The notes under the pieces: generated by a model
What the model was told of the DNA's origin: nothing
Databases searched by the model: none
Seen by the model: only the letters and a program-made list of their open reading frames with translations
Made by a program: the position numbers and the translations under genes
Part shown: positions 15,144-48,139 of the stretch, piece by piece
Numbering within the stretch: position 1 is the first letter of the stretch
How the letters are laid out: the number at the start of each line of letters is the position of its first letter
From: Clostridia bacterium
GTDB lineage: Bacteria > Bacillota > Clostridia > Christensenellales > UBA1242
Direction: 5' to 3'
NCBI GenBank assembly: GCA_045614835.1
Contig: JAZLDP010000004.1
Span: 1 to 48,139 of the forward strand
Length of the DNA stretch: 48,139 nt

Positions 15144-18100
15144 TTATTCTATACGAACTTTAAATTGTAGTGAGTCGTTTCCACTATTAGAACCAGCATC
15201 TTTTATAAATTTGATGTAAATAAAGCGTTCTCCAGCTGGTATTACTCCATAATCTACTGTTTGAACATTTGTACTTGATAGCCATTTAAATGACTTAAAT
15301 ATATTACTACTATCTTCACTACTACTAGAAGTTAATGTTGTATCTACATTTGATAAAATACCATAGTCATAAGAACTTTCTCCTGAACTAATACAATCTA
15401 AATATAGGTTTTGAACTCCATTTGCGGTAAACGATAATTTACATAATGAGAATGAGTTATTTACTCCTTGATTTGTAGATTCGTAATAACCACTATCGTT
15501 TAAAGTAAACCCATATGTTACTCCATCTATTGCCTCTACTGAATAAGTGTATTCAGGTATTGTAACAAGAACTGCTACACTAAACGTTTGTGTAAAAGTT
15601 TCTTCTCCGCCAGTCATATTAATAGTGATATTTGTTGTTCCTGCCCCTACCGCTGTAATAGTTACAACATCTCCACTAATTGAAGCTTCACAAATGCTTG
15701 TATCATCTGAAACCACTGTAAACGTTGGATTATCTCCAAAATAAGTTAACGTTATGTTTTTGGTATTTATCATATTTAATACTAATGTTTGATTACTTAT
15801 TTCTAACAATCCATAATCATCAGTTGTAATAATGTCGGCATAAGTTGACCAGTTTGTTGCTGAACGATATTTTTTCCACGCTTCAATTGTTGGCACTTTG
15901 ATTTCTTTTAAGTAGATATTAACTCCAAATGTTTTGCTTGCAATAGTTGGTGGCGTTTCACTTTCCATTATAATAGTAGCTTCGTAGCCACCAGATTTAC
16001 CTATTCCAAGTGCAAAGTTTCCTATGTTTTTTACACTTTCTGGAATTGTTATGCTTGTTAACTGAACACAATCATCAAATGCATAATCACGTATTTCTAT
16101 CAAAGAAGACGAAAGATTAATTTCAGTTAATACACTGCAACCCTCAAATGCTTGTTTTTCTATTCGCCAAATACTATTTGGCATTTCTACACTTGTTAAT
16201 TGCTTACAATTTGAAAATGTATCTTTTTCAATTCTTTCAAAACCATTAGGAATTTTAAAGTTTATTATAGAACTGTTAGCATATTGATTTTCTGCAATTG
16301 CGTTGTATATTCCTTCTTGATAATCAACGCTTTCTAAATAAGGAAAAGCAAGTAAGTTTTCAGCCATTAGCATTCCAACAGCTCTAGCATAACTATTGCT
16401 TAATTCTGTATATTCCTTTAGTAAAACTTTAACTGTGTATTTTCCAGTAGAGCTATAAGGAGTTGATTTAACGAGTTTTATATAAGAAGATGTGTAAGCA
16501 GTAGAAAAAGTTTCAACATTTCCATCACCCCAATTAACTTCAAAAGAACCTATAATTCCTTTTGTTGTAATAGCTGGTTGTAAATAAGTCGGGTCAGTTA
16601 AATCAAATGCAAATATTGTTGGTTTGTTGCTAGAAAATATTGCTGTTAAAACAATATTACTATTAATATTAGTTAATGGTTTATCCCAACCGTTAAATGT
16701 ATAAGTATATTCATCTCCTAAATCTTTAACAGGTGTAGAACCATTATATACAGCAGTTCCGCCATTATCTACATAGCTTGTTTGTAATACTGTTCCATCC
16801 CAATTTTGGAATATAACTTCCCAAAAATTAGTAATTGCAAATACTGGTGCAAAAGTTGTATCTTCATAAATTGGCGTGTTTATACTTGGACTCCAATTAG
16901 AAAACCCATATTTTTCTTGTAAAACATAATCTGTTGGTTTAGTTGGTGTATTTCCTACATAAGTAGCAACTTCTCCCTTTTTAACAGTTGTTTGATATAA
17001 AATATTTCCTTCATAATCAACGAATGTTGCAGTATATGTAATACTAATTTCATCAGCTGTAATTACTAAACCAGCTCCAAAATAACTAATCCATTTATTA
17101 TAATCACCTTCAGAAATTACTCCTTCAATATGAATTTTACCAGTTAAAACTGCTTTTTCATAATTACTACCATCAACACTTAATCCTAGTTTAGACATTA
17201 ACGTATTTAAAACGAATTGTTGAGAATTTGCAAATGTCCAATCAACGTTAGTAATTCTTACTCTTTCTACATAATCTATACTATTTATTAAAAATCTTCT
17301 ACTTATTGAATTATCAATATTTTCTAATCTTAATGTAGTTAAGTTCGTATAATTATCAACTGTAAGCTCTGTTAAACTTGGTTGATTTGTAACAATTAAA
17401 CTTGATACATTTGGTAATCTCATATTAGTTAAGTTACCACCACTTGCTAATGTAACACCCCTAATTCCACTTCCGCTTGCATATATTTTCTTAATATTTA
17501 AGCATTTGCTTAAATCTAAAGTAGTTTTTAAATTAGGACAGTTACTAACATCAATTTCTTCTAATAAAGAGTTGTTACCAATTTGTAAATCTGTTAAGTT
17601 AGTATTTGAATAACCACTGATTTGACTACCAATAATCAACTTATTTAATTTCGTTGCTTTACTAAAGTCCATTGTTCTTGCATATTTATTACTTAAATCA
17701 CCTATATCAAGTATATTACTTGCACCATAAATAATTGTTTCAGTATTATTGAACGTTAATCCTTCAGGGCTTTCAATTAAAGTAGTTTCGTTTGCTTTAC
17801 TTCTTTCTTTAACTACGCTAGAACCAAATTTTACAGTAGAATACATATCAATATAAGGCTTAATATTAAAGTTTCCGCTTGGTTCTACACCTTCGTATAA
17901 TTCTGGTGTATATAATCTCATTGTTATAAAGTCATTTTCATAATCACTAGCTTCATATTTACTATCTAAATATTTAAATCTATTATTTAACCACCATTGC
18001 AAATGATTTAATCTATTACCTTGTGCTACATAAAGATATGTTGAATCGTTTTGCTCAATTAAAGGCTTAATGTATTTAAAATCAGCATCTGTATTATACA

Positions 18101-21100
18101 TATTAGCACTTATTTTATCAATTTGTTCTTCTTGTAAAACACTTAACATACTATCATAAGTAATTTGCTTTCTTAACTCTTTATAATAATCTTTAATATC
18201 ATCAGCAAATGCTTCACCAAAATTATTCCATAATAAAGAATTATTACCATTATAAACAGCTACATTTTCTACTTCATCTGTTTGCTCTAAACCATATTCA
18301 AATTGTAATCCACCTTCGTTGTTTAAACCATAAGTAGTATCAATATCATACCATCTAGGATACCAAATAACTCCATCAACAGTGTCTAAAAACATATTCT
18401 TAGCTCTACTATCTACTGCTAACATAATATCCATCATTACATAATAGAATAAGCAGAAGTCTTTATTAAAATATTGCTCAAATTCATTCTTAAACTTTTC
18501 AATATCATCTTTAGTAGAATAAACCCAACTAACTACTCTTTCTAAATTAGTGTAATTAGTATATTTATCAGGGTATCTTGCTTCAAAGTCATCACTTACT
18601 GCACCTGTAAAATCATCAGTTAAAAAATTACATCTATCGCTTGTATTGTTCTTAAACTCCCAGCTTTCACTTGTTTGAGTATTTAATCCTATAGTAGCAT
18701 TATTTCCTTTATCGTTATTAAAGTTATAAACACCATAATATTCTAATTCACTACTTTCATCTTTTCTAACAAACATTAAAATAGGGAAACCATTAATAGA
18801 ATTTCTAACTCCATTATCATCTGTTTGTGTAGGGAATTTAGGACTATATTCATTTACTATTTTAGCATTACCTGTATTATGGCTGTGAGATGATTCCATA
18901 TAATCAGCTTTGAATGTATAAACATTTTCAGCTATTCCACCTTCATAAAATACAAAAACAACAGGGAATTTTCCTTTATAGTTTTTTCTAGGGAAATATT
19001 GTGATGATGTTCCTTGTATATCCCATACTACATCAAAATATTCAAAATCATAAGAACTGTTTCTAGGATTTGAATATTTTACAGATACATTAGTTTTATC
19101 TCCTTTGACAGATGGCATTCTACCAGTAACAATCATTGTAGGTATTAAGTTTTTAACTTTTTCAAAACTTACTTGACCATAATCATTTAGTATATCATTT
19201 TTAGTATATTCAGTTAATAATTCAGCAAAACTTAAATCAGATAAATAATTATTTAAATTTTCTTTATCAGTTAAAGCACTATTATATATTCTTATTGAAT
19301 AAATATCTATTCCAGCATTTTCAGAACCAATAACAATATTTACTGGAGTAGTTTGTGTAAAGTTGTCATTTGCTGGATATAAAGTTGTACCACTTAATAT
19401 ACCATTAATAAATGTTTTAATTAATCTTTGTTCACTAGATGTTTGAACTACAAAAGCAACCTTTAATTTCTCATCTTCTTTAAACTTAGTAACAATTTCA
19501 CTTTGTTCTGATTTTAAAACACATTTATTTGCATAAATCTTAATACCTTTATTTCCACTCCAACAAGTCAACACTTCAGCATTAATATTAACTAAATCTT
19601 TTGTTGCAAATTCAACTTCTATTGTTTTTCCATAACTTAAAAAGTCGGTAGCAAAGATTTGATAAGGTATTTCAACTTTAGCTTTACCATTTAATCTTAA
19701 AACGTTATATCCATTGTTATCTAATAACCAACCATTAGTATTCCAGTTAAAATTAGTTAATGTTGCTTTAATATCTTTATAAGACCAATTTTCTTTATTA
19801 GAATCAGAATTTGTTCTATTTTTAGCATTTAAATATAAATGTAAATTGTTAGTAACTGCTTCAACATTAATTTGTGCTTCATTAACTAAAACATCAAATT
19901 CTAATGACTTTTCGTTATCTAATCCTTCGTTAGCAACAATTTTAAACGTTACGTTGCCTTTAGGATAGTTAGTAGTGTTCCAATATTGTCTAGTTCTATC
20001 AATTATTAATTCATTAACTTTATCATCATTAATATATAATTTAACATCACTTGTTTCTGATAATGGATTATATACTAAATAATCAATACTAATTAATTCA
20101 CCTTGAGTAACTTCTTCAACACCAAATTTAGAACTTATTAATATTTCATCGTTATCAGCTTCATAAACTATTATGTTGTAATTAAGCTCATTTGATTTTA
20201 TTGTGTTTTCATCAACAACAGCACTCATAGTAACTTTTAATTTATGAACGCCGTGTTTTAAATCCTTAATTATTTGTTGTTGGCTAGTTCCTGTTTCTAG
20301 AATTTTTTGAGTTGCATATTCTTCATCATCTACATAAAAAGTAACTAATTTTTCAACAGCACCGTAAGGTATAAATCTAAAATCTATATCACCAGTATAT
20401 GCTCTATTATCGTTAAATGTGCTTGTTAATCTTAAAGAAATAGCATCTATTTGATAAATAAGACTTCCTGTAGAACCAACTAAATCTGTTAAAACAATTC
20501 TTATAGTGTTAACTCCTTGCCTCAAATAATCAGTAATATCTATTTCATTATCTCCTTCTGTTATATTAACTGATTTTTTTAACGTTTCGTTTGCATAAAC
20601 TTGTAATGTTCCTTCATTTGAAACGCTAAAATTAACGTTATATTTTAAAACTACTTTTGTATTTAATGCTACTGTTTGTTGTAATGGAGAAATTGTTTTT
20701 AAATAAACAATACCTGAACCTCCACCACCACCTCCAGTGCCACCTCCACCACCTGAAGCAATTAACCAAGAATTTAATTCAAAATCAAAAGTATAATCGT
20801 ATCCAGCAGTGAATCTTTTGAATAATTTGTTAGTAGTATCTACAATAACTAATTCAGCACCAAATTCAGTAGTTGTAATAGAATATTTTCCATCACCTAA
20901 ATCTGTGTAAATATTAATTAAGTTTTTAGGGTCTAATATTTCTGGTATATATTTTATTCCTAAACTGTTAAAATAATAATCTTTTAAATCATTAGTTAAA
21001 CTTTGTAAATCTTTAATGTTTTGTTCGTTTACATCATTTTTAGATTTCAATGAATCCAAACTATTTAAAATATACTCTGTAGTTGGTGCATCATTTACAA

Positions 21101-21287
21101 AAATATTGATTTCATCAATTATTCTATTAATTTCTTCAATAGTCTTAAAAGTCGGAGTTGTTAATGCCTCTACTATTTTTTGAGGTGATAATCCTTTTTC
21201 GCTTGGATTTCTACCTACTGTTAAAACTGATTCTTTTTTTAATAATCTAATTACATCATCAGATATTTTTTTAATTTTATCCGCCAT
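15144..21287 (-). CDS. giant multidomain tail fibre / adhesin (LamG-like, CotH-like, two LRR types, InlB-B-type repeats, Big_2-like Ig)
   Basis: 2047-aa ORF whose start overlaps the upstream stop (TAATG). Gly run GGGGGTGGGGGGSG at aa 179-192 (nt 20712-20753). LamG/concanavalin-like block at aa ~490-680. CotH-like block at aa ~720-1110 (IQGTSSQYFPRKNYKGKF ... WYPRWYDIDTTYG; nt ~17958-19130). LRR block at aa ~1180-1330. Two repeats YTATFVDYEGN... and WEVIFQNWDGT.... BspA-type LRR FSNCKQLTSVEMPNSIWRIEKQAFEGCSVLTEI. Ig-like VTITAVGAGTTNITI. Confidence 0.7.
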   Translation of the reverse strand: MADKIKKISDDVIRLLKKESVLTVGRNPSEKGLSPQKIVEALTTPTFKTIEEINRIIDEINIFVNDAPTTEYILNSLDSLKSKNDVNEQNIKDLQSLTNDLKDYYFNSLGIKYIPEILDPKNLINIYTDLGDGKYSITTTEFGAELVIVDTTNKLFKRFTAGYDYTFDFELNSWLIASGGGGGTGGGGGGSGIVYLKTISPLQQTVALNTKVVLKYNVNFSVSNEGTLQVYANETLKKSVNITEGDNEIDITDYLRQGVNTIRIVLTDLVGSTGSLIYQIDAISLRLTSTFNDNRAYTGDIDFRFIPYGAVEKLVTFYVDDEEYATQKILETGTSQQQIIKDLKHGVHKLKVTMSAVVDENTIKSNELNYNIIVYEADNDEILISSKFGVEEVTQGELISIDYLVYNPLSETSDVKLYINDDKVNELIIDRTRQYWNTTNYPKGNVTFKIVANEGLDNEKSLEFDVLVNEAQINVEAVTNNLHLYLNAKNRTNSDSNKENWSYKDIKATLTNFNWNTNGWLLDNNGYNVLRLNGKAKVEIPYQIFATDFLSYGKTIEVEFATKDLVNINAEVLTCWSGNKGIKIYANKCVLKSEQSEIVTKFKEDEKLKVAFVVQTSSEQRLIKTFINGILSGTTLYPANDNFTQTTPVNIVIGSENAGIDIYSIRIYNSALTDKENLNNYLSDLSFAELLTEYTKNDILNDYGQVSFEKVKNLIPTMIVTGRMPSVKGDKTNVSVKYSNPRNSSYDFEYFDVVWDIQGTSSQYFPRKNYKGKFPVVFVFYEGGIAENVYTFKADYMESSHSHNTGNAKIVNEYSPKFPTQTDDNGVRNSINGFPILMFVRKDESSELEYYGVYNFNNDKGNNATIGLNTQTSESWEFKNNTSDRCNFLTDDFTGAVSDDFEARYPDKYTNYTNLERVVSWVYSTKDDIEKFKNEFEQYFNKDFCLFYYVMMDIMLAVDSRAKNMFLDTVDGVIWYPRWYDIDTTYGLNNEGGLQFEYGLEQTDEVENVAVYNGNNSLLWNNFGEAFADDIKDYYKELRKQITYDSMLSVLQEEQIDKISANMYNTDADFKYIKPLIEQNDSTYLYVAQGNRLNHLQWWLNNRFKYLDSKYEASDYENDFITMRLYTPELYEGVEPSGNFNIKPYIDMYSTVKFGSSVVKERSKANETTLIESPEGLTFNNTETIIYGASNILDIGDLSNKYARTMDFSKATKLNKLIIGSQISGYSNTNLTDLQIGNNSLLEEIDVSNCPNLKTTLDLSKCLNIKKIYASGSGIRGVTLASGGNLTNMRLPNVSSLIVTNQPSLTELTVDNYTNLTTLRLENIDNSISRRFLINSIDYVERVRITNVDWTFANSQQFVLNTLMSKLGLSVDGSNYEKAVLTGKIHIEGVISEGDYNKWISYFGAGLVITADEISITYTATFVDYEGNILYQTTVKKGEVATYVGNTPTKPTDYVLQEKYGFSNWSPSINTPIYEDTTFAPVFAITNFWEVIFQNWDGTVLQTSYVDNGGTAVYNGSTPVKDLGDEYTYTFNGWDKPLTNINSNIVLTAIFSSNKPTIFAFDLTDPTYLQPAITTKGIIGSFEVNWGDGNVETFSTAYTSSYIKLVKSTPYSSTGKYTVKVLLKEYTELSNSYARAVGMLMAENLLAFPYLESVDYQEGIYNAIAENQYANSSIINFKIPNGFERIEKDTFSNCKQLTSVEMPNSIWRIEKQAFEGCSVLTEINLSSSLIEIRDYAFDDCVQLTSITIPESVKNIGNFALGIGKSGGYEATIIMESETPPTIASKTFGVNIYLKEIKVPTIEAWKKYRSATNWSTYADIITTDDYGLLEISNQTLVLNMINTKNITLTYFGDNPTFTVVSDDTSICEASISGDVVTITAVGAGTTNITINMTGGEETFTQTFSVAVLVTIPEYTYSVEAIDGVTYGFTLNDSGYYESTNQGVNNSFSLCKLSFTANGVQNLYLDCISSGESSYDYGILSNVDTTLTSSSSEDSSNIFKSFKWLSSTNVQTVDYGVIPAGERFIYIKFIKDAGSNSGNDSLQFKVRIE

Positions 21288-31947: not shown

Positions 31948-32211
31948 TTACAGCATCCTTTCTTTAGTCCTTTCAATTTTTTCTTGAATTTTTAAGTTTA
32001 AGTCATAATTGCTAATTTTAAATAAGTATTGCATTTGACAAAGCATAATATAAACATCAGCTAATTCTTCGGTAATGTTTTCTATATTAGTTTTGTCCCT
32101 TAAATGCTTACATAATTCCTTTTGCAATTCGCTTAATTCTTCAATAGCAACTATAACTTGCTTATCACCATATTTTTCAATCAACAATTCAAATATTTCA
32201 TTATTGCTCAT
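31948..32211 (-). CDS. MazG-like nucleotide pyrophosphohydrolase (small all-alpha type)
   Basis: 87 aa; EELSELQKEL and EELADVYIML match the paired EExxE / ExxD metal-binding helices. Confidence 0.6.
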   Translation of the reverse strand: MSNNEIFELLIEKYGDKQVIVAIEELSELQKELCKHLRDKTNIENITEELADVYIMLCQMQYLFKISNYDLNLKIQEKIERTKERML

Positions 32212-32539
32212 ATTTTTTGTTCCTCTTTACTTTCTTTAAGTTATTTTTAATCATATATTTTCTTAATGTAAATGTTGATACATTTAGTATTGAATGAACT
32301 TGCTTTAATGTTAGGTTTTTATCGTTCAACAATTTTTCAATATAATCTTTATCAATGCTATCTAGTATAGGTTTAGGACCTTTTCCTTTTTGAAACTTTT
32401 CACTATGACCTATTTCTCTTAATCTGTTTCTTATAGTTTTACTGCTTACAAAATATTTTTCTGCAATTTCATTTAGAGTTTTTTTATCTATAAAAAACAT
32501 TTTTTCTATTTCTTTAATAGGCAATTCAATTCTTTTCAT
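32201..32539 (-). CDS. putative DNA-binding protein with two HTH-like segments
   Basis: 112 aa; LNEIAEKYFVSSKTIRNRLREIG and LKQVHSILNVSTFTLRKYMIKN. Confidence 0.45.
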   Translation of the reverse strand: MKRIELPIKEIEKMFFIDKKTLNEIAEKYFVSSKTIRNRLREIGHSEKFQKGKGPKPILDSIDKDYIEKLLNDKNLTLKQVHSILNVSTFTLRKYMIKNNLKKVKRNKKYEQ

Positions 32540-39538: not shown

Positions 39539-39809
39539 TTAATAATTTTTTCATCCCTTCTATGTAATAATCATAAAACTTATAAACCATTTTTTGAAAT
39601 TGTTTAAACGTTACATCTTTGTAAAAACTACCCATAAAAAAACCATTTTCATCCGTAATTTCTTGATTTCTTTCTACATAAAAATTAACACCGCAAATCG
39701 TAAAAGGATAACCCTTTCTTTTTTCGACCTCAAAATCCTTTTTATATCTTATAAATTCAACTTTTTTGTTTCCTTTAACAAATCTTCTATAAAAATCATT
39801 TTTATTCAT
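39504..39809 (-). CDS. hypothetical protein
   Basis: start trimmed to ATG 39809 (GGAGGAA SD); the track ORF begins at TTG 39824. Confidence 0.75.
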   Translation of the reverse strand: MNKNDFYRRFVKGNKKVEFIRYKKDFEVEKRKGYPFTICGVNFYVERNQEITDENGFFMGSFYKDVTFKQFQKMVYKFYDYYIEGMKKLLNESIQIQKQDS

Positions 39810-40581
39810 ATTCGTTTCCTCCAAATATTTTCATAGCCTCATCAATAGCCTCATCAATTTCAGTATTAGATAGAGTATTTTCGGACAATTTTCTATCATT
39901 AAGCTTCTCATCTAAATCTTTCAAGTAATCATCATACCAACTAGGTAATTTAGCTTGTTTTTTTGTGTTTAAATTTCCCTTAGTTCTCTCCCAAGTTCTT
40001 ACACAAGCTTTCCAATCTTTCATAGAGTTTTTACCAACTTTCCAACCTTTAGATTCGTAGAAATCAAAAAACATATTAGCATCTACATTATTGTTTCTTT
40101 CTTTACAATAATCTCGTATTTCTTCTATTGTAGGTTTTTTAAACCTATTATCTTTCTCTTTCTCTATATCTTTCTCTTTCTCTATAGGACATTGTCCACT
40201 TTTGTCCTCTAATTGTCCTCTTTGCTTTCTTTTAACCTCTGCCCATCCCGTTTCAGAACCAATCATTTTTTCTACTTGCCTCATAAAAATAGTTCCATCA
40301 TCTAATACTTCCATCATTTTTAATTGAGAAAATACTTTTACAGCACTTCTTACAATATCGATATTAGTTCGGGTAATTGTTGCTAGCATTTCATCGTTGT
40401 AAGGTATTTCATCACTAAATCTTAAACAACCCTCGTGAGAAATGCTTTCACATAAAAGTTTTAAATAAAATAAAATGTAATCTTTACCATTAGGCATTGA
40501 TTCTACTATCTCTATATCGTGAGATTTAAAAAAATTCTTATCTAATTTTAACCAAAAATATTTTTTGTTTTTATTTGACAT
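39802..40581 (-). CDS. phage replisome organizer (N-terminal replisome-organizer domain plus DnaD-like C-terminal domain)
   Basis: Start trimmed to ATG 40581 (SD AAGGAG). YFWLKLDKNFFKSHDIEIVESMPNGKDYILFYLKLL and IEEIRDYCKERNNNVDANMFFDFYESKGWKVGKNSMKDWKACVRTWE are typical of this family. Confidence 0.75.
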   Translation of the reverse strand: MSNKNKKYFWLKLDKNFFKSHDIEIVESMPNGKDYILFYLKLLCESISHEGCLRFSDEIPYNDEMLATITRTNIDIVRSAVKVFSQLKMMEVLDDGTIFMRQVEKMIGSETGWAEVKRKQRGQLEDKSGQCPIEKEKDIEKEKDNRFKKPTIEEIRDYCKERNNNVDANMFFDFYESKGWKVGKNSMKDWKACVRTWERTKGNLNTKKQAKLPSWYDDYLKDLDEKLNDRKLSENTLSNTEIDEAIDEAMKIFGGNEYE

Positions 40582-40601
40582 ATTACACTCCTTCTTTGTC
40601 T

Positions 40602-40660
40602 TAATAAAACTAAAACCACCATACTTTAGGTTAATGCAGTAACCCTTATATATGGTGGTT
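40602..40660 (-). terminator. long hairpin plus U-run just upstream of the replisome-organizer SD (attenuator-like or ori element)
   Basis: AACCACCATA (40614-40623) and TATGGTGGTT (40651-40660) form perfect 10-bp arms, with an inner GGTTA/TAACC pairing. On the minus strand the hairpin is followed by TTTAGTTTTATT. Confidence 0.35.
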
Positions 40661-40663
40661 GAT

Positions 40664-40728
40664 AATTGGTAGTATTTATTTTTTTGCTTTTCTACCAAGT
40701 ATTGTAGTATCTGCATATACTACCAATT
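40664..40728. repeat. 12-bp perfect inverted repeat AATTGGTAGTAT / ATACTACCAATT enclosing further GTAGTAT-type copies
   Basis: arms at 40664-40675 and 40717-40728; internal CTACCAAGTATTGTAGTAT. Confidence 0.85.
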
Positions 40729-41237: not shown

Positions 41238-42131
41238 TTAAAATTCTCCATCAAAAACATTGTCTTTTTCGACTTCTTTTTCAGGTTTTGGAGCATCTTT
41301 TTTGACATTTTCAACTAAAGATTGCTCTTGAACAGATTGAGCTACAGGTTCTTCAATAGGGAAAACCTCATTAGGAGTTGTTAACCCATCTTTAAGAGCG
41401 TTGTATATTTTAACTAATTGAGACATTTGATTTTTGCTAAAAGCTTGTCTTTTCATACCAAAATATTTTTCTATTCTTTCAATACTTATTCCAAAATTTT
41501 GTCTTAAAGCTTCAATTCCTCTTGTAATAGTTCCTTGAACATCTGTTTTGCTATTGATAGTTTCGTTACACCATTCTCTAGCTTGCTCAACTAAATCTCT
41601 AGGAATTACGTTTTCTAAACATTTTCTAACTCTTCTAGATGCTTGATTTGCTTCAAGTTCGTAAATATCTCTAGGATTAGTTAAGATTTCATTACCACTT
41701 TTCTTTTCTCTTGTATGAGGAACATTAAACTTAATTTCAGTATAAATGTTATTTTCTAAATCCCACGCAAATGCTTTACATAAAGATGTATGATTTTCTT
41801 CATCTCTATATAAAACATCATAACCGCTTTGAATATTACCATAGCATTGAGCTACTACCTCTAGTAATTTGATGCTTGGACCTACTACCTTTGTGTTTCC
41901 TCTTGGAAATTCATACTCTGCAATTTCTGCTAAACTTTTTCTTTCGCAACTTGCTTGCAGTTTTCTTTCTACATCCACAATACTTCTGTTAAATTGTTTT
42001 GCCATAACGACTCTAGCTTGCACTTCAGCCATTTCTCTAGTCATTTCGCTTGCTTGAATCACATTATTTGTTCCAAATTGGCTGTTAGCCTCTTGTAAAT
42101 TGTTTGCTTGTCTTGCTAATTGATTATTCAT
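41238..42131 (-). CDS. single-strand annealing protein (RecT/Redbeta-like recombinase, by context)
   Basis: Start trimmed to ATG 42131 (AAGGAG 9 nt upstream); the track ORF starts at ATG 42155 with a weak SD. Sits between the YqaJ-like exonuclease / DUF1351-like gene and SSB. Confidence 0.5.
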   Translation of the reverse strand: MNNQLARQANNLQEANSQFGTNNVIQASEMTREMAEVQARVVMAKQFNRSIVDVERKLQASCERKSLAEIAEYEFPRGNTKVVGPSIKLLEVVAQCYGNIQSGYDVLYRDEENHTSLCKAFAWDLENNIYTEIKFNVPHTREKKSGNEILTNPRDIYELEANQASRRVRKCLENVIPRDLVEQAREWCNETINSKTDVQGTITRGIEALRQNFGISIERIEKYFGMKRQAFSKNQMSQLVKIYNALKDGLTTPNEVFPIEEPVAQSVQEQSLVENVKKDAPKPEKEVEKDNVFDGEF

Positions 42132-42459
42132 CTTTCTTTTCTCCTTCTTCTTCATTATCTTCTTTTAATTCAAGTAAGTTTTTAAAATATTCATATTCTT
42201 CTTCTTTGCCATACCCATTATAAACAGTTAACATTCCAAATTCAATTTCCTCCATATCATCATAAGAGTCTCTTCGTATTTTAGGATTCCATTTTTCTTT
42301 TAATTTGTTAACCAATTCATAGTATTTATTTTTCCAAAATTCTATATTTTCATCTTGACATTTTTCTAAATCTTCATACATTGATAATTGCTTTTTTAAA
42401 TCTTCATTTTCTTCTTTTAACTTAAGTAATTCTTCAACTACATATTCATCAGCTCTCAT
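42124..42459 (-). CDS. hypothetical acidic coiled-coil protein
   Basis: 111-aa ORF with a TAGGAGG SD. Confidence 0.8.
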   Translation of the reverse strand: MRADEYVVEELLKLKEENEDLKKQLSMYEDLEKCQDENIEFWKNKYYELVNKLKEKWNPKIRRDSYDDMEEIEFGMLTVYNGYGKEEEYEYFKNLLELKEDNEEEGEKKDE

Positions 42460-42461
42460 TA

Positions 42462-43214
42462 TTACGATAACCTCCTATATTGATATTTATTAGATTTTAA
42501 AAAGTTTGACAAATCTTTAATTTGTTCTTTAGTTCCTTCAACCTCAAAACTTAATTTAAAAGTTTCTTTACTTTCGTTAATTTCGGGTTTTACGCTTGAA
42601 ATTTGCTCTCTAATGCGTTTTTCATTGTTAAACGCCTCAATAGTTCCTTTAATATCTAAAGTCGTTAAATACTTAGATTTTAGATTCGCAAAATCTTCAT
42701 CACTTCCGTTTGAAATAGTTTCAATAACCTTAACACACTCATCTATTTCAGATAACAATTTTTGAATATCGTTTAATATGTCAGATTTTGAGTATGTTTT
42801 ATTTAACCATTTTTCGTTCCAAATTTTATCTAAAGGAATTTCACTTTTTAATTGTTCGTATTCCTCGACAATTTCATTTTTCTTTTTAATTTTTCTTTGT
42901 TCTTCAAAATCCCTTAATTGAGCATCAATTTTGCCATTAACTGTATCAACCATAAGCATTAAATCTTTTACTTGATTTTCAAACTCTTTATAAGGTTCTA
43001 AATAAAGGTTTTTAATCTCTATCTTTCTATCGTTCATTGCCTTAATAACGTTGTTAAGTTTTGAGCGTATAGCTTTATATTTTGGAAGCTCATCTTCTGT
43101 TACAACTAAATTGTCATATTGAACTAATTGCCTTTCTAACTCCGCTTTTAATTCAATGTAATTAAAATTAATTTCACCTTTTTTACAAGTATCAATTTGA
43201 AATTCTAAACTCAT
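42462..43214 (-). CDS. DUF1351-like protein
   Basis: 250 aa; INFNYIELKAELERQLVQYDNLVVTEDELPKYKAIRSKLNNVIKAMNDRKIEIK resembles DUF1351 proteins that accompany RecT in Firmicutes phages. Confidence 0.45.
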   Translation of the reverse strand: MSLEFQIDTCKKGEINFNYIELKAELERQLVQYDNLVVTEDELPKYKAIRSKLNNVIKAMNDRKIEIKNLYLEPYKEFENQVKDLMLMVDTVNGKIDAQLRDFEEQRKIKKKNEIVEEYEQLKSEIPLDKIWNEKWLNKTYSKSDILNDIQKLLSEIDECVKVIETISNGSDEDFANLKSKYLTTLDIKGTIEAFNNEKRIREQISSVKPEINESKETFKLSFEVEGTKEQIKDLSNFLKSNKYQYRRLS

Positions 43215-43228
43215 TTTATCACTCCTCC

Positions 43229-43903
43229 TTATAAGTTTATTATTAATGGTGGTTCTTTTTTATTTTCCACCATACTCCAAAATTCATCTTCTTTTTGTTC
43301 TAAAAATGCTAAATCATTTAATTTATCTTTTTTCAAAAAACAAAAAGTTTTAATAACAGAGCAATCTTTAAACGTAAGCTCTGCGTTTATTATGACAAAA
43401 TCATAATCAGTAACAAGTAAATAATGTAAAACTTGAACAAAGTAACTCATAGGTATTGTTGTTTTCCATTCATTAGAATTAGGTAGGTATCTTGTTTTGC
43501 CCTCATATATACCTTTCATTCCTTTTTTTAAAGGCGTGTATATATGGTCACTACCTAAAAACTCAAAGTCTTTTAATACCTCTATTTCTCCATCTAAACT
43601 TGCTCTTAAATAATTTTTGTCATTTCTGACCAAAACATCATCACTTGTTGTTACTTGAAAAGTTCCTATAAACTTTGCTTGAAATAAATCTCTCAATGGT
43701 TTCTCGGCGTTCTTGCCATATTCGACAAACTCATTAGAATCTTCACATTTTTTTTGAATCAAACCGCATTTTTCTTTATATAAATCCAAATTAGTTTTCC
43801 AATTAGAAAATCCTAATATAATTGGTGCATCGCTACCACCTATGCCTTTTTGTCTTAATTTTAACCATTCTTCATAATTTTCGTAAGGAATTCTCGTAAA
43901 CAT
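43229..43903 (-). CDS. YqaJ-like viral recombinase exonuclease
   Basis: WLKLRQKGIGGSDAPIILG is the hallmark YqaJ N-terminal motif. Confidence 0.8.
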   Translation of the reverse strand: MFTRIPYENYEEWLKLRQKGIGGSDAPIILGFSNWKTNLDLYKEKCGLIQKKCEDSNEFVEYGKNAEKPLRDLFQAKFIGTFQVTTSDDVLVRNDKNYLRASLDGEIEVLKDFEFLGSDHIYTPLKKGMKGIYEGKTRYLPNSNEWKTTIPMSYFVQVLHYLLVTDYDFVIINAELTFKDCSVIKTFCFLKKDKLNDLAFLEQKEDEFWSMVENKKEPPLIINL

Positions 43904-44103
43904 TATCTGAAAAACTCTCCAATTTCAACGTTAAATTTTTGGCATATTAAACTTAACTCATCAAAAGTGAAGGATGTTTTCCCATTAAGTTTATTATTTA
44001 AGGATTGTCTTGTTATATTCAACTCTTTAGCGAAATCTTCTTGTTTTATTTCGTTAATTATTAAATAAGATTTTACCTTTAAGCCAATGCTTTTTTTACT
44101 CAT
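43903..44103 (-). CDS. XRE-family HTH transcriptional regulator (Cro/Aca-like)
   Basis: 66 aa; IKQEDFAKELNITRQSLNNKLNGKTSFTFDEL. Confidence 0.75.
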   Translation of the reverse strand: MSKKSIGLKVKSYLIINEIKQEDFAKELNITRQSLNNKLNGKTSFTFDELSLICQKFNVEIGEFFR

Positions 44104-44737: not shown

Positions 44738-44977
44738 TTAATTTTCATTTGATTCGTTTAACCTTTTAAACAAGGGAGTCAAGTCAATGCTTAACTCCTT
44801 ATCTCTAGCCTCTAAAAAGTTTAAAATGCTTTCTCTTATTGCCTCAGTTTTATTGAGCTTACTTTCTAAATAATCAATTATTTTTTTGTCGTTTTCAACG
44901 TTAGGATTTAGCCTAATCACATATGATTTGCATTTTTTAATATAGTTCTTTGTTGCTCTTTTTTTGCTTTCTTTCAT
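44738..44977 (-). CDS. hypothetical protein, possibly ribbon-helix-helix
   Basis: 79 aa; basic N-terminus, strand-like KSYVIRLNP, then two helices (IIDYLESKL, TEAIRESILNFL). Confidence 0.35.
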   Translation of the reverse strand: MKESKKRATKNYIKKCKSYVIRLNPNVENDKKIIDYLESKLNKTEAIRESILNFLEARDKELSIDLTPLFKRLNESNEN

Positions 44978-44988
44978 AATCTTAAAAC

Positions 44989-45408
44989 CTAATACCTTTC
45001 TTCTTGTTTTACTTTTCTATAACTCATATGATTTATAAAAGATGTTTTTCGAAGTGTTTGATTTTCAAAAAACTCTAAAACCCAAGCAGAATCATATAAT
45101 TTATTAATATCTTCATCACTTAAACTTTCTAAATATTCACTATCAGTATATTTAGTAATAAACAAATTACCATATAACATAGGTTCGTTGTAATAATCAA
45201 TCGCACTGATTCGCGGATTCTCTTTTAATAAAGCCTCATCATCACAAACAATAGTGTATAATTCGTTTGCAATGTATCGATTAACGATATCTATATATTC
45301 AACATTCAATAATTTATAATATTCTTCCAATTTTTGAGGTATTTCAACCACCTCAACTTTGCCATTTTCAACATCAATTAATAACCCTTTAACCATTCTT
45401 TTTGCCAT
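44989..45408 (-). CDS. DUF3846-like protein
   Basis: 139 aa; VKGLLIDVENGKVEVVEIPQKLEEYYKLLNVEYIDIV...CDDEALLKENP...LYGNLFI resembles the DUF3846 pattern. Confidence 0.45.
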   Translation of the reverse strand: MAKRMVKGLLIDVENGKVEVVEIPQKLEEYYKLLNVEYIDIVNRYIANELYTIVCDDEALLKENPRISAIDYYNEPMLYGNLFITKYTDSEYLESLSDEDINKLYDSAWVLEFFENQTLRKTSFINHMSYRKVKQEERY

Positions 45409-45409
45409 C

Positions 45410-45649
45410 TTAAACCTCCTCCGCTAAAGCAATTTCTTTTGCCATATTAGACTTTAAAAACTCAGCCATTGTGTCATTTTCAACTTCAATTTCTTTAAGT
45501 GCCTCAACTATATCTTGCAAACCAAAACCCCATAACCCATAATTATATCTTTTAACCTTACCATTATTTAAATTAACCAAAATCAAATATTCCATATTAG
45601 AATCATCTAAAATTAATAAACCACATTTACAATATTTAAACTTATACAT
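45410..45649 (-). CDS. hypothetical protein
   Basis: 79-aa ORF; preceded by an S element whose AGGGGG may serve as a distant SD. Confidence 0.7.
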   Translation of the reverse strand: MYKFKYCKCGLLILDDSNMEYLILVNLNNGKVKRYNYGLWGFGLQDIVEALKEIEVENDTMAEFLKSNMAKEIALAEEV

Positions 45650-45663
45650 ATTTTAACTTTTAA

Positions 45664-45691
45664 CCCCCTAAATTGCCCGTGTAATCGTTTT
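45664..45691 (-). repeat. S element copy (intergenic)
   Basis: the minus strand reads AAAACGATTACACGGGCAATTTAGGGGG; aligns with 12849-12881 through to the following ATG. Confidence 0.7.
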
Positions 45692-45737
45692 AATTATTTT
45701 TTACTGATAAATTATCAATAAAGTTTTCTGAAACGTT

Positions 45738-45775
45738 GATAGTCGAATATGGCATTTAAACCATACTCAACTATC
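45738..45775. repeat. 15-bp-arm inverted repeat built from two M motifs
   Basis: GATAGTCGAATATGG (45738-45752) and CCATACTCAACTATC (45761-45775); as minus-strand RNA all 15 positions pair, including two G-U. Confidence 0.8.
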
Positions 45776-45808
45776 GCACTTTTTGACATTTCAATTTTCT
45801 TCTTTAGT

Positions 45809-46357
45809 TTATTCTTCATCGTATGGCACATTGCATTTAATATCAGTTAAAACATACTTCCAAGATGTTCCATAGTGAGTCACGCCCCAAATATACATAT
45901 CAAGTTCTTCATTATAGAAAACAATTTCATTGATTTCTTTTAAAATCTCCGCTCCGTTGGCTGATACAATATAATATTGATATATATCTTGGTTATATGA
46001 ATTTTCCGCTTCTTCTTCAAGCTCATTTATTTGTTCTTCAATATCATATATTTTTTGTTGCAATTCTTCAATTTTTTCTTCAATTCCTTCTTCAATAAAA
46101 ACATCTAATTCTTCGCTTAATTCTTCAATTTCATCTTTTAATTCTTCGATAGTATCCGCATTGTCAATGAATCCGCTTTCTTGCTCCCAATACCCTATAT
46201 CATAAGTTTTTTTCATTATATCATTGTTTAACACTGCATCAAAAGCCTTTGCAAGTGTGGCATAATCAACATATCCCTTTTCTTGTCCGTATTCGCTAAT
46301 CTCATTTCCGTAAAAATATTTCCCGTGTACTTTGTAAACTTCTTTTTTAATAGTCAT
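45809..46357 (-). CDS. hypothetical early protein with an extremely acidic coiled-coil centre
   Basis: 182 aa with an AAGGAGCG SD; DTIEELKDEIEELSEELDVFIEEGIEEKIEELQQKIYDIEEQINELEEEAE. Confidence 0.8.
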   Translation of the reverse strand: MTIKKEVYKVHGKYFYGNEISEYGQEKGYVDYATLAKAFDAVLNNDIMKKTYDIGYWEQESGFIDNADTIEELKDEIEELSEELDVFIEEGIEEKIEELQQKIYDIEEQINELEEEAENSYNQDIYQYYIVSANGAEILKEINEIVFYNEELDMYIWGVTHYGTSWKYVLTDIKCNVPYDEE

Positions 46358-46360
46358 AAT
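46332..46360 (+). promoter_or_regulatory. possible plus-strand promoter (TTGTAA-17-CATAAT)
   Basis: -35 at 46332-46337; -10 at 46355-46360, overlapping the ATG of minus-strand CDS 45809..46357. This match quality can arise by chance in AT-rich DNA. Confidence 0.3.
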
Positions 46361-46366
46361 TTTTTT

Positions 46367-46473
46367 CGCTCCTTAATATATTATATTTTTTTCTCTGCTC
46401 TGCATTTGTGCGGACTTGCAACCGCTTCAGTTTTGAAGTTGCATTAGAGAGGGGATTTTTTCCCCTTTTTTTC
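46367..46473 (+). ncRNA. candidate ~105-nt plus-strand antisense sRNA
   Basis: bounded by the candidate promoter and a plus-strand-only intrinsic terminator; contains hairpin TGCAAC-CGC-TTCA-gttt-TGAA-G-TTGCA; complementary to the SD and 5' UTR of CDS 45809..46357. Confidence 0.3.
46450..46473 (+). terminator. intrinsic terminator that is functional-looking only on the plus strand
   Basis: AGGGGA-ttttt-TCCCCT followed by a T7 run on the plus strand; on the minus strand the hairpin is preceded by A7 but followed by CTCTAATGC. Confidence 0.5.
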
Positions 46474-46480
46474 TTATTAA

Positions 46481-46837
46481 TTAATCTTCAAAGATTTCAC
46501 TTCTTAATTGTTCTATTTCTGCATTTGTAAATAATCGGCTTACTTTGTCGGCTTGCTTTTTACAAGCAGTATATATTTTATATGCTTCGCTGTCTGATAC
46601 ATCATAACCAAATTCAAAGCAAAAATCTTCGAAATTTCTTGCGTTATTGTAAGCATCTGCATCAATTAATAAACTTTCAATTATTTCTTCTTTTGTGCTT
46701 GAGTTCTTAAAGTTGTCGTGAAATGTAAATCCGCATCTGTGCCCTTTATACGTTAGAGTTATTCGGTAAGCATCACCGCTTGTCATTTGGCTCTTTCCTA
46801 AGTTTGTTTTTGTAAGTTTAATTTGATTTAATAACAT
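46481..46837 (-). CDS. hypothetical early protein
   Basis: 118-aa ORF with a GGGAGG SD. Confidence 0.8.
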   Translation of the reverse strand: MLLNQIKLTKTNLGKSQMTSGDAYRITLTYKGHRCGFTFHDNFKNSSTKEEIIESLLIDADAYNNARNFEDFCFEFGYDVSDSEAYKIYTACKKQADKVSRLFTNAEIEQLRSEIFED

Positions 46838-46959
46838 ATTTTAAATACCTCCCATAATGTTATTGTTTAATGCTAGATTTTAAGCACTAATTAAAAAGTA
46901 TTAATTTTATAATTTATATCTTAATACCTTTTAATTAAGGCTTAAAGCCTTAAAATGTT

Positions 46960-47211
46960 TTATTCTTCATCAAATAATTCTTCGTGATATTCTTCGACCA
47001 TTTGCATTAACTCAACTTCTGCATTTTTTGAGTAATCTCTTAATAGATAAATTGCTTCTTGTAAAAGAGCTTTTATTTCTTCTTGTCTTAATTGGTAAAC
47101 TTGCCCCGCATCAAATAATGCAATACTTAAAGATGGATAAGTTGCTTCGCCTCTCATTTTTTCAGCTCTTGCTTTTTCTTGTCTTGCTGTTTGAAATAAT
47201 TCTTTTAACAT
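46960..47211 (-). CDS. hypothetical early protein (first gene of the strand)
   Basis: 83-aa helical ORF with an AAAGGGG SD. Confidence 0.8.
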   Translation of the reverse strand: MLKELFQTARQEKARAEKMRGEATYPSLSIALFDAGQVYQLRQEEIKALLQEAIYLLRDYSKNAEVELMQMVEEYHEELFDEE

Positions 47212-47256
47212 ATTTTTTAACCCCTTTGTTTTTCTTTCTACCCCTTAGGCACTTTC

Positions 47257-47286
47257 ATTATATCAGTTATATGCTATCATATACAA
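47257..47286 (-). promoter_or_regulatory. early sigma70-type promoter (TTGTAT-18-TATAAT)
   Basis: -35 at 47281-47286 and -10 at 47257-47262, with the -10 ending 45 nt upstream of ATG 47211; the spacer contains TATATG-ATAG-CATATA. Confidence 0.5.
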
Positions 47287-47333
47287 TACTTTTTTTAAAA
47301 ATATTTCAAAAATATTTAACTTTTTTCTTATTT

Positions 47334-47346
47334 TGACATATTCAAC
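47334..47346 (+). repeat. M motif copy (TGACATATTCAAC)
   Basis: 12 of 13 identical to 47740-47752 and 47817-47829. Confidence 0.7.
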
Positions 47347-47366
47347 TCACTAAAAATCACTAAAAA
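47347..47366. repeat. tandem 10-nt repeat TCACTAAAAA x2
   Basis: exact copies at 47347-47356 and 47357-47366. Confidence 0.9.
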
Positions 47367-47460
47367 ATGCTCCTTTTTTACTATATTATTTCCTACCTAA
47401 AATTGTCTATTTAAAGGTAAAATCTTAGTATTTATTATGTTAATCATTTAACTATTGTTT

Positions 47461-47479
47461 TTTATACTTTTTTATACTT
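47461..47479. repeat. tandem TTTATACTT x2, period 10
   Basis: 47461-47469 and 47471-47479. Confidence 0.85.
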
Positions 47480-47483
47480 AATC

Positions 47484-47519
47484 ATAACACTATATTTATT
47501 ATTAATCTTTTAGTGTTAT
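47484..47519. repeat. 9-bp perfect inverted repeat ATAACACTA / TAGTGTTAT
   Basis: arms at 47484-47492 and 47511-47519. Confidence 0.85.
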
Positions 47520-47530
47520 TATTAATCTTT
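47496..47530. repeat. 15-nt direct repeat TTATTATTAATCTTT x2, period 20
   Basis: 47496-47510 and 47516-47530. Both contain the 8-mer ATTAATCT, which recurs at 47672-47679 and 47702-47709. Confidence 0.9.
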
Positions 47531-47715
47531 ATACTATGATTATTTATAAATATAGTACTATACTTTAATATATTTTTATATTTAATTGTTAGAAAAATAC
47601 TAAATTATAATTTATGTATATACTTAATTTAATCTAGATTTAAATAGTATTATACTTAAATATAATATAGTATTAATCTAATATAGTATACTATTATTAT
47701 GATTAATCTAGTATA

Positions 47716-47725
47716 TGTGTGTGTG
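47716..47725. repeat. (TG)5 microsatellite at the AT-rich / GC-richer boundary
   Basis: TGTGTGTGTG. Confidence 0.9.
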
Positions 47726-47739
47726 ATTCGTTGTTATTG

Positions 47740-47784
47740 TGTCATATTCAACCATTAAGCACCTAGCACAAGCCTAATATGACA
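47740..47784. repeat. M-motif inverted pair (TGTCATATT ... AATATGACA)
   Basis: 9-bp perfect arms at 47740-47748 and 47776-47784, with a 27-nt spacer. Confidence 0.85.
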
Positions 47785-47816
47785 TAAAAGCCCTAAAGCC
47801 CTTAATCGTTTAGCCT

Positions 47817-47904
47817 TGTCATATTCAACGCTACTACAACGATATCAAGTCGAAAGTGGCAAACCCCTTAACGCCTCTTGCTTGGTCGTTGGTTCAATAT
47901 GGCA
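47817..47904. repeat. M-motif inverted pair (TGTCATATTCAAC ... GTTCAATATGGCA)
   Basis: 47817-47829 versus 47892-47904; 11 of 13 complementary. Confidence 0.7.
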
Positions 47905-47941
47905 TTAATACCCATTGACTAGCCAAAAGCCGACCACAAGC
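47880..47941. other. long imperfect hairpin (about 21 bp in four helical segments)
   Basis: GCTTGGTCG pairs with CGACCACAAGC (2-nt bulge), TTGGTT with AGCCAA, CAAT with ATTG, and GG with CC. Confidence 0.5.
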
Positions 47942-48022
47942 CCAATTTAAGCCCTTAAATAACCATCTGAAATCACGTATTCAAAGGTAAAGTCTTGGAA
48001 TACATCGTTTTGACTACCCACG

Positions 48023-48044
48023 AAATCCCCCTCCTATGCGTTTT
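48023..48044 (-). repeat. S element copy
   Basis: plus strand AAATCCCCCTCCTATGCGTTTT; the minus strand reads AAAACGCATAGGAGGGGGATTT; 16 of 22 complementary to 160-181. Confidence 0.6.
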
Positions 48045-48073
48045 CGCGATAAGATTGGAAAGGGTTTTGAGGG

Positions 48074-48085
48074 AAAAAGAAGGTA
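48074..48085 (+). repeat. 12-nt exact repeat AAAAAGAAGGTA, copy 1 of 3
   Basis: see 61-72. Confidence 0.9.
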
Positions 48086-48092
48086 TTGCCTA

Positions 48093-48126
48093 CCCCCTAG
48101 CCCCCCGATAGCGAACGCACACCCCC
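48093..48126. other. cluster of C5-C6 tracts (G tracts on the minus strand) continuing into nt 20-38
   Basis: C5 at 48093-97, C6 at 48101-06, C5 at 48122-26 (= nt 1-5), C6 at 20-25 and C4 at 35-38. Confidence 0.8.
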
Positions 48127-48139
48127 ATATCATATCAAA
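48122..48139. repeat. terminal identity, partner of nt 1-18
   Basis: identical 18-mer. Confidence 0.95.

Follow-up and report, generated by a model that had tools for sequence, protein, structure and literature searches.

The 48,139-nt stretch of DNA analysed here (the window) is the whole of contig JAZLDP010000004.1, one of 201 contigs in the 1.74-Mb assembly GCA_045614835.1 of a Clostridia bacterium (Christensenellales, UBA1242). It is a complete tailed-phage genome, in which a 13-nt motif, here called M, recurs in the early region. The 58 open reading frames (ORFs) treated as genes all lie on the minus strand. Comparison of the ORFs with PHROGs and Pfam identified a large terminase, portal, major head protein, HNH endonuclease, single-stranded DNA-binding protein (SSB), replisome organiser, RusA-type resolvase and YqaJ exonuclease; no integrase or CI-type repressor was detected in the phage in these scans, and neither an RNA polymerase nor a sigma domain turned up among the 58 ORFs searched against PHROGs or the 21 searched against Pfam. 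The phage has a GC content of 27%, and the nearest named phages are the Bacillus phages Page, Pascal and Pony, with a portal identity of only 23-24%. The contig ends (1-18 and 48122-48139) are identical, forming an 18-nt direct repeat CCCCCATATCATATCAAA, which may reflect overlap from a circular assembly, a short terminal repeat, or a cohesive end that was filled in; 18 nt is not, to our knowledge, a usual assembler overlap length. Given these identical ends, the non-coding termini join as one block of about 1.4 kb (47212-48139 and 19-474; 1,384 nt), flanked on one side by the last late gene (475-6918) and on the other by the first early gene (46960-47211). The non-coding block and the early genes downstream of it contain the M copies discussed below.

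M has the sequence TGTCATATTCAAC (consensus TGNCATWTTMRAC) and is non-palindromic. A search of the whole contig with up to two mismatches returned 21 matches, as compared with 2.63 +/- 1.64 (maximum 8) in 100 dinucleotide shuffles of the window, and with a mean of 2.75 (maximum 11) for 1000 letter-permuted motifs. This search had been set as a check in the earlier note that first described the motif from the sequence, and its outcome excludes chance frequency. With up to one mismatch, there are seven matches on the phage contig and seven across the remaining 1,689,450 bp of the assembly, while with up to two mismatches the other 200 contigs contain 3.0 matches per 48 kb. The degenerate form TGNCATATTSRAC, composed after inspection of the site list, has eight matches in the assembly, all on the phage contig. 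The non-coding block alone contains four matches, against a control mean of 0.05 (maximum 2), and the two exact copies and one 12/13 copy in non-coding DNA compare with 0.003 expected at up to one mismatch. A de novo ranking of k-mers brought up mainly acidic-codon repeats, and the approach was abandoned.

Because many of the matches are genic, and the phage is AT-rich with a single coding strand, codon shuffling within each gene was used as the control for coding sequence. In the early coding sequence (5,943 nt; genes that start at or beyond 40804), nine forward sites were found against 0.53 expected (reached in 0 of 2000 shuffles) and two reverse sites against 0.06 (3 of 2000; P=0.0015), a total of 11 sites against 0.56-0.59 from the codon shuffles. 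The late coding sequence (38,823 nt) is at chance level, with two forward matches against 2.6 expected and one reverse match against 0.44. Two matches (31462 and 41230) overlap genuine start codons and may represent ordinary start-codon context. Seventeen sites with up to two mismatches are present between 41.2 and 47.9 kb, 11 of them within coding sequences; the spacing between copies is 31-700 nt. The true set amounts to about 16-20 sites in this interval, with matches elsewhere at background level. M is a real motif, specific to this contig and restricted to its early region. Enrichment stops a little short of the strong promoter 40801-40773, suggesting a link to the early transcription units; this promoter and the one at 44714-44686 suggest separate transcription units starting at 40716 and 44657. 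The copies listed in the earlier note were all found at the coordinates given there, and its list proved incomplete, lacking the eleven early-gene sites and the inverted copy at 47849-47861. Its picture of three inverted pairs plus one solo copy gives way to one of mostly single copies located within early genes.

Alignment of the 17 sites confines the information to the 13 positions, the flanks being uninformative. When each position was scored among sites with at most one mismatch at the other 12 positions, position 2 was G in 7 of 8, position 4 was C in 6 of 7 and position 13 was C in 7 of 8, a retention that is notable because G and C each make up just 14% of the background. Position 3 is free (A4 C4 G3 T6), the central position 7 is A in six sites and T in five, position 10 is C more often than A and A more often than G, and position 11 is A more often than G. 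The coding-sequence sites occur in three reading-frame contexts, with unrelated flanks in unrelated proteins, which points to a constraint on the nucleotides and not on the peptide; eight of the eleven sense-oriented coding sites are in the frame GTT GAA xAT GxC Axx. Among the early and non-coding sites, 13 of 17 share one orientation, along the direction of transcription. The orientations in non-coding DNA are balanced when degenerate copies are counted (forward at 47334, 47740 and 47817; reverse at 47892, 47849, 47772 and 45742).

The copies in the non-coding leader are partly arranged as inverted pairs. Copies A and B each face a degenerate inverted copy, with AAC ends facing across exactly 19 nt (centre to centre 32 bp), and the two 19-nt spacers share 8 of 19 letters by hand count. 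The pairing of 47740-47752 with 47776-47784 described in the earlier note is borne out, the latter segment (AATATGACA, the outer 9 nt of the inverted copy 47772-47784) being a perfect 9-nt complement of 47740-47748 with a loop of 27 nt. In the 47817-47861 unit, the inverted arm has one mismatch to the degenerate consensus, and three mismatches plus one G-T to its partner. A different geometry is found in the hairpin at 45.7 kb (H1), where TG ends face across about 4-6 nt. No single dimer geometry covers both arrangements, and the earlier suggestion of operators for a dimeric protein is not supported as it stood. The two hairpins proposed at 45738-45775 (H1) and 47880-47941 (H2) both fold: H1, which is followed by the sequence CAACGTTTCAG, at -23.7 kcal/mol (z -6.8) as sense and -14.3 kcal/mol (z -4.6) as antisense RNA, and H2 at -20.7 kcal/mol (z -1.84) as sense and -18.7 kcal/mol (z -2.40) as antisense RNA. 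The other option raised at that time, RNA stem-loops, is well supported only for H1, since the hairpins in 47735-47945 reach only z -1.8 to -2.0 on the sense strand. Copies C and B lie within a 22-nt direct repeat (47325-47346 and 47731-47752, 19/22 identical). The very AT-rich block that they bracket includes a self-complementary segment at 47589-47681 (81% over 96 columns) and further palindromic sequence at 47473-47572; this block may serve to unwind or bend the DNA, or may be a cluster of promoters. The features are collected in Table 1.

Table 1. Coordinates of M copies, hairpins, promoters and candidate binding-protein genes in the window
Feature	Position	Strand	Remarks
Imperfect hairpin H2	47880-47941	-	24 pairs in the minimum-energy fold of 47876-47945
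Inverted copy TGCCATATTGAAC	47892-47904	-	2 mismatches; 3' arm of H2
Degenerate inverted copy TGCCACTTTCGAC	47849-47861	-	Exactly 19 nt from copy A; position weight matrix score 13.5
M copy A, TGTCATATTCAAC	47817-47829	+	Exact
Degenerate inverted copy TGTCATATTAGGC	47772-47784	-	Exactly 19 nt from copy B
M copy B, TGTCATATTCAAC	47740-47752	+	Exact; sense strand reads GTTGAATATGACA
Very AT-rich block	47347-47739		393 nt; nested imperfect palindromes; bracketed by copies C and B
M copy C, TGACATATTCAAC	47334-47346	+	1 mismatch; 47 nt upstream of the early-promoter -35
Likely early promoter	47257-47286	-	TTGTAT, 18 nt, TG-A-TATAAT (extended -10); upstream of first early gene 46960-47211
Site TGGCATAATCAAC	46258-46270	+	Within gene 45809-46357
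Intergenic hairpin H1	45738-45775	-	16-bp stem, 6-nt loop on sense RNA
H1 3' arm TGCCATATTCGAC	45742-45754	-	2 mismatches; 5' arm complementary via two G-U pairs
Site TGTCATTTTCAAC	45472-45484	+	1 mismatch; within gene 45410-45649
Site TGCCATTTTCAAC	45360-45372	+	Within gene 44989-45408 (DUF3846)
Ribbon-helix-helix (RHH)-like protein, 79 amino acids (aa)	44738-44977	-	RHH-type families at scores 0.84-0.86, below the 0.9 line; no Pfam match; candidate binder
Site TGTCGTTTTCAAC	44887-44899	+	Within RHH-like gene
Sigma-70 promoter	44714-44686	-	TTGACA-17-TATAAT, 12/12; early intergenic gap
129-aa early protein, possible helix-turn-helix (HTH) and long C-terminal helix	44096-44485	-	Weak HTH_11/winged-helix leads; candidate binder
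XRE-type HTH protein, 66 aa	43903-44103	-	HTH_26 9.3e-10, HTH_3 4.7e-9; PezA N-terminal region 4.3e-6; candidate binder
Site TGTTATATTCAAC	44011-44023	+	1 mismatch; within XRE gene
Site TGGCATATTAAAC	43940-43952	+	Within XRE gene
Site TGCCATATTCGAC	43714-43726	+	Within YqaJ exonuclease gene; 13-mer equal to H1 arm, other strand
Inverted site TGTCATAATAAAC	43385-43397	-	Within YqaJ gene
Site TGTCATATTGAAC	43112-43124	+	1 mismatch; within DUF1351 gene
Inverted site TGACATATTAAAC	42771-42783	-	Within DUF1351 gene
Site TGACATTTTCAAC	41303-41315	+	Near 3' end of gene 41238-42155
Match TGTCATATTTAAA	41230-41242	+	Overlaps SSB start codon; may be start-codon context only
Sigma-70 promoter	40801-40773	-	TTGACT-17-TATAAT, 11/12; early intergenic gap
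Sigma-70 promoter	464-435	-	TTGACA 464-459, 18 nt, TATAAT 440-435; 12/12

Several known kinds of element were considered for M and set aside. The earlier view that the copies are not simple promoters holds, as no -10-like element stands at a constant distance from the 16 sense-oriented copies and the phage has its own sigma-70 promoters elsewhere; promoter scans made no call using an M copy as -35 apart from weak 9/12 matches. The likely early promoter at 47257-47286 was recognised by eye, and fails the -35 criterion of the promoter scan. Rfam gave no match at gathering score in the window and none at E up to 5 in 47200-48139, and no minus-strand intrinsic terminator was found by scanning at H1, H2 or the copy-B stem. 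Promoters for the virion RNA polymerase of N4-type phages have a 5-7 bp stem and a 3-nt loop near the genome end, and accompany a virion RNA polymerase gene; the stems here are 9-16 bp with loops of 4-27 nt, and no polymerase domain was found in the 2147-, 2047- and 982-aa proteins. A host motif is rejected because M is essentially absent from the other contigs and unclustered among the matches listed for 400 host-family genomes. The LexA (Cheo) box, Spo0A box, CcpA cre, CtsR, Rex, sigma-54, DnaA box and IHF sites were considered and dismissed on inspection only, as was Chi, M being too long and near-absent from the other contigs. Origin iterons, such as those of the lambda O and SPP1 gene 38 type, are repeated protein-binding sites, as M is predicted to be, and like M are partly coding and beside an AT-rich block, but they are tightly clustered tandem repeats, whereas M is dispersed. 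The replisome-organiser gene (39802-40716) itself contains tandem direct repeats (2 x 18 nt exact at 40149-40184, and others at 40003-40050, 40288-40317 and 39833-39856), and the repeats at 39833-40317 look like an iteron-type origin inside the initiator gene. These repeats are of other sequence and none is an M copy, so M probably does not represent origin iterons.

Searches beyond the contig were used to look for M in relatives. Close relatives by protein are present in Logan assemblies, with portal identities of 99, 88 and 82% (P0121-P0123) and 129-aa early proteins 89-94% identical (P0241-P0244). Three of the matches (P0121, P0244 and P0002) each have a longest contig of 44,044 bp and are probably from one Logan contig, with a portal at 99%, a 129-aa protein at 89% and a 305-aa recombination protein at 65% identity, which would mean that the early region is mosaic among close relatives. 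A blastn search of 45600-48139 against 50,697 phage records gave no match, and IMG/VR scans with single proteins (an early protein of 118 aa, the last 699 aa of the 2147-aa protein, or the recombination protein of 305 aa) gave no confirmed relative. An alignment-based IMG/VR scan yielded 79 loci and a genome-contig scan two distant loci of 38-41% identity; the best four loci (L017, L019, L027 and L097) share only the YqaJ / DUF1351 / 305-aa protein module. Across 81 loci (including L096-L097; 1,289,741 bp), M has no exact match, six at up to one and 87 at up to two mismatches, which is background. The pair pattern TGTCATATTCAACN{10,40}AATATGACA has no match in IMG/VR, and CATATTCAACN{50,80}TGNCATATTCAAC found 41 JGI metagenome stretches that are unrelated tandem repeats or repeat-protein genes, with no tblastn match from the 58 phage proteins. 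In the 400 host-family genomes, the non-coding DNA gave only short AT-rich matches (query positions 39-488 among the matches listed), and TGNCATATTCAAC is present in 188 of them at up to four copies per genome, with no cluster among the matches listed. The RHH-like protein has seven matches among representatives, of which the small-protein ones are 38-50% identical, too few for a co-occurrence test. A full-text literature search for 13-mer variants found no phage or bacterial paper among the matches, judged by title.

Other features of the phage and of its bin were observed alongside. The two giant minus-strand proteins (475-6918 and 15144-21287) are 2147 aa with an LPD38 ‘large polyvalent protein’ domain and 2047 aa with BspA-type leucine-rich repeats, respectively. 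Right after the last late gene, the minus-strand stretch 219-464 is a candidate phage small RNA, with the promoter 464-435 and a strong intrinsic terminator with a T run (252-225); the intervening stretch of about 205 nt folds at -43.1 kcal/mol (z -5.45) with C-rich stretches unpaired, and a weak, sub-threshold Rfam match to RsaE/RoxS was obtained (222-334; E 0.009; 28.8 bits, where the gathering score is 79). The plus strand of the non-coding block has three copies of a 12-mer, AAAAAGAAGGTA (sense TACCTTCTTTTT), at 61-72, 193-204 and 48074-48085, the last copy overlapping a stretch (48078-48098) called terminator-like. In the gap after the first early gene, 46879-46953 contains an AT-rich palindrome of 69 columns (81%) and an adjoining TTAAGGCTTAAAGCCTTAA hairpin, to which a decamer AAGCCCTTAA with four copies in 47788-47958 is related. 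A 39-codon glycine-rich ORF (48014-48133, minus strand) is a candidate gene, with a Shine-Dalgarno sequence, AAAGGAGGGGGG, 7 nt upstream of its ATG, at about 20-31 across the circular junction. Five other contigs of the bin (C87, C69, C78, C187 and C134) carry distantly related phage-like genes, and none is M-enriched; the portal genes on C187 and C134 are 32% and 25% identical, C87 has tail- or lysis-region homologues, and C69 has 80% identical DNA over 155 nt of the replisome-organiser gene.

The M copies are tentatively interpreted, at somewhat less than even confidence, as dispersed asymmetric predicted sites at which a protein encoded by the phage would bind DNA and so act on the early region. 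Judged from the sequence, recognition of double-stranded DNA by a protein is favoured over base pairing, and was the better of the two options given in the earlier note: the retained G and C, the A/T-tolerant centre, the free position 3 and the enrichment of both orientations fit protein-DNA readout better, because interchange of A and T at the centre places a mismatch mid-way in any 13-nt duplex, and reverse enrichment in early coding DNA is not predicted by a signal read on sense RNA only. The occurrence of an exact and a degenerate inverted copy at exactly 19 nt in two units despite dissimilar spacers also argues for protein-binding sites, as do the small HTH and RHH-like early proteins that the phage encodes. 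In the proposed mechanism, a sequence-specific phage protein would read M on double-stranded DNA, with some 16-20 sites marking the first 6.7 kb or so in the direction of transcription, from the leader through one intergenic hairpin and the early genes to the SSB start. The binder would presumably be of a monomer type or use independent half-sites, with single sites in genes and paired arrangements in the leader, and would act on the early region as a block, most likely by shutting down or modulating early transcription. It might do so through operators near the early promoters, or through roadblocks within early genes, as in the P1 C1 operators or the Cluster A stoperators. Candidate binders are the XRE-type HTH protein, the 129-aa HTH-like protein and the 79-aa RHH-like protein; the AlphaFold model of the 129-aa protein was of low confidence (mean pLDDT, the predicted local distance difference test, 62.3), too low for use in a fold search.

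Several observations weigh against this interpretation. Strong promoters are overlapped by no M copy, and a PDB sequence search found no sequence resemblance between the three candidate proteins and the Cluster A repressor. Because no integrase or CI-type repressor was detected, an immunity function is unlikely. The 9:2 orientation bias in coding sequence is no greater than the 0.53:0.06 predicted by codon usage, so that the orientation rule which defines stoperators is not demonstrable here. The sense RNA of H1, moreover, is far more stable than its antisense counterpart, and the two mismatches between the H1 arms become G-U pairs in it, which fits an RNA role for that copy; H1 may thus act as an RNA hairpin in addition to, or in place of, a DNA site.

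The resemblance to known multi-site operators is one of design. The stoperators of Cluster A mycobacteriophages (L5 gp71 type) are 13-nt asymmetric sites in about twenty dispersed copies, some near promoters and most away from them (PMC9283540). M is similar in having many dispersed asymmetric 13-nt copies. By contrast, the Cluster A sites lie in short intergenic spaces, genome-wide, in temperate phages and with an orientation that follows transcription, whereas M is mostly in coding sequence, is confined to the early 6.7 kb, and has an orientation bias no larger than codon usage predicts; neither an integrase nor an immunity repressor was found in the phage, and the three candidates include no relative of the repressor. 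The C1 operators of P1 control promoters of a temperate plasmid-prophage, and occur both as single sites and as overlapping inverted pairs. They comprise 22 dispersed asymmetric sites with a 17-bp consensus (PMC8546580). M is likewise asymmetric, dispersed and present in many copies, but differs in length and sequence and is mostly intragenic and limited to the early region, and no C1 homologue was found. Membership of M in the stoperator or the P1 C1 operator family is not supported.

The main rival to protein-binding sites is a role at the RNA level, which appears rather unlikely: the inverted copies would be stem-loops (H1, H2 and the 47740/47784 stem) for processing, stability or attenuation on sense transcripts, and the single GUUGAAUAUGNCA copies in early mRNAs would be recognised by an RNA-binding protein, a ribonuclease or an antisense RNA. 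The strand asymmetry of H1 noted above speaks for it, as does the 47772-47784 arm, whose two A-to-G changes from the consensus still allow it to pair with copy B through G-U on the sense strand; the early and non-coding copies, furthermore, are all in DNA transcribed or transcribable in the sense direction, and the enriched zone stops where the strong promoter 40801-40773 starts. The G-U pairs, four to six in all, carry little weight, since G-U arising from transitions on a given strand is a 1-in-2 event. Folding gives little further support, as the 271-nt region 47720-47990 barely beats its shuffles (z -1.52 sense, -1.86 antisense) and the sense z-scores are -1.8 for H2 and -2.0 for the copy-B stem; the region 47200-48139 lacks any Rfam match even at E up to 5, and the scan shows no promoter or terminator delimiting an RNA with copies A and B. 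An RNA signal is also at odds with the T at the centre of 5 of 11 sites, a mismatch mid-duplex, with the reverse copies enriched in coding DNA, and with the 47817/47861 inverted arm, which fits the consensus (one mismatch) better than its partner (three mismatches). An improbable further possibility is recognition of the genome end, in which the copies near the contig end would be bound by the small terminase subunit or by an injected protein handling the first-entering DNA, the 18-nt repeat then being a filled-in cohesive end or short terminal repeat. The R sites of lambda cosB provide the precedent, as several short asymmetric copies, pointing either way and no more than a few hundred bp from the genome end, and an HNH gene beside the terminase genes is seen in many cos phages. 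Here, the 18 nt at 1-18 and 48122-48139 are identical, five M copies lie 220-400 bp from the putative end in both orientations, every site is within 7 kb of that contig end, and the HNH gene (32201-32539) adjoins the terminase genes. Unlike in lambda, the terminase genes are not adjacent but about 16.7 kb away, the sites extend up to 6.9 kb away, with eleven spread over 6 kb of early genes in a manner unlike cos or pac, and the ends are putative.

Site-specific nicking or cutting, as in the single-strand interruptions of T5-like phages, or recombination hot spots that exchange early-gene modules, would account for long, asymmetric and degenerate sites of the kind used by homing-type HNH enzymes, and the phage encodes an HNH protein and has an apparently mosaic early region, with one relative contig combining a 99% portal with a 65% recombination protein; as the M sites are inside genes and not at module borders, and both orientations are present, this explanation is decidedly improbable. 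Use of M as promoters by an RNA polymerase or sigma factor of the phage that escaped recognition, or as boxes for a middle-promoter activator, would agree with the phage-specific nature of the motif and with the 13 of 17 early and non-coding copies that run along transcription. This orientation bias equals the codon-usage prediction, though, no conserved -10-like element lies downstream, most copies are 36-177 nt inside genes and not upstream of them, and a phage with its own consensus sigma-70 promoters and no polymerase or sigma domain in the ORFs searched makes such promoters very improbable. That M has no function, having arisen by chance or from the composition of AT-rich coding sequence and the context of start codons, was already disfavoured and is hardly credible. 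Its merit lies in the common codons of the GTT GAA xAT GxC Axx frame, the two matches over real start codons, and an estimate from tabulated counts that TGNCATATTCAAC outnumbers its reversed control about threefold in the 400 related genomes; against it stand the early-gene and non-coding excesses over their controls, and the G/C positions retained against the background composition.

Within the preferred interpretation of M as protein-binding sites, a more specific proposal, speculative and unlikely as a whole, is that an apparently virulent phage of a small-genome, low-GC bacterium uses about 20 asymmetric 13-bp sites to tag the 6.7 kb of its genome that are transcribed, and perhaps enter the cell, first, most of the sites being placed within coding sequence in almost all of the early genes. 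Through them, one protein would turn the whole early region off or on together, for instance as an obstacle to elongating RNA polymerase. Such control would serve an early-to-middle switch and not immunity, and would constitute a stoperator-like system outside the temperate actinophages. If one phage protein binds all sites, the early region would be a compact and tractable case of region-wide control via coding-embedded sites, and the ‘many asymmetric operators’ design of P1 and Cluster A would reach an apparently non-temperate phage of a gut-type low-GC host. For a phage lineage without a cultured relative, M would then supply a 13-bp site of defined sequence, together with a few candidate binders, and if it is instead an RNA or end-recognition signal, it would still delimit the early unit of the phage.

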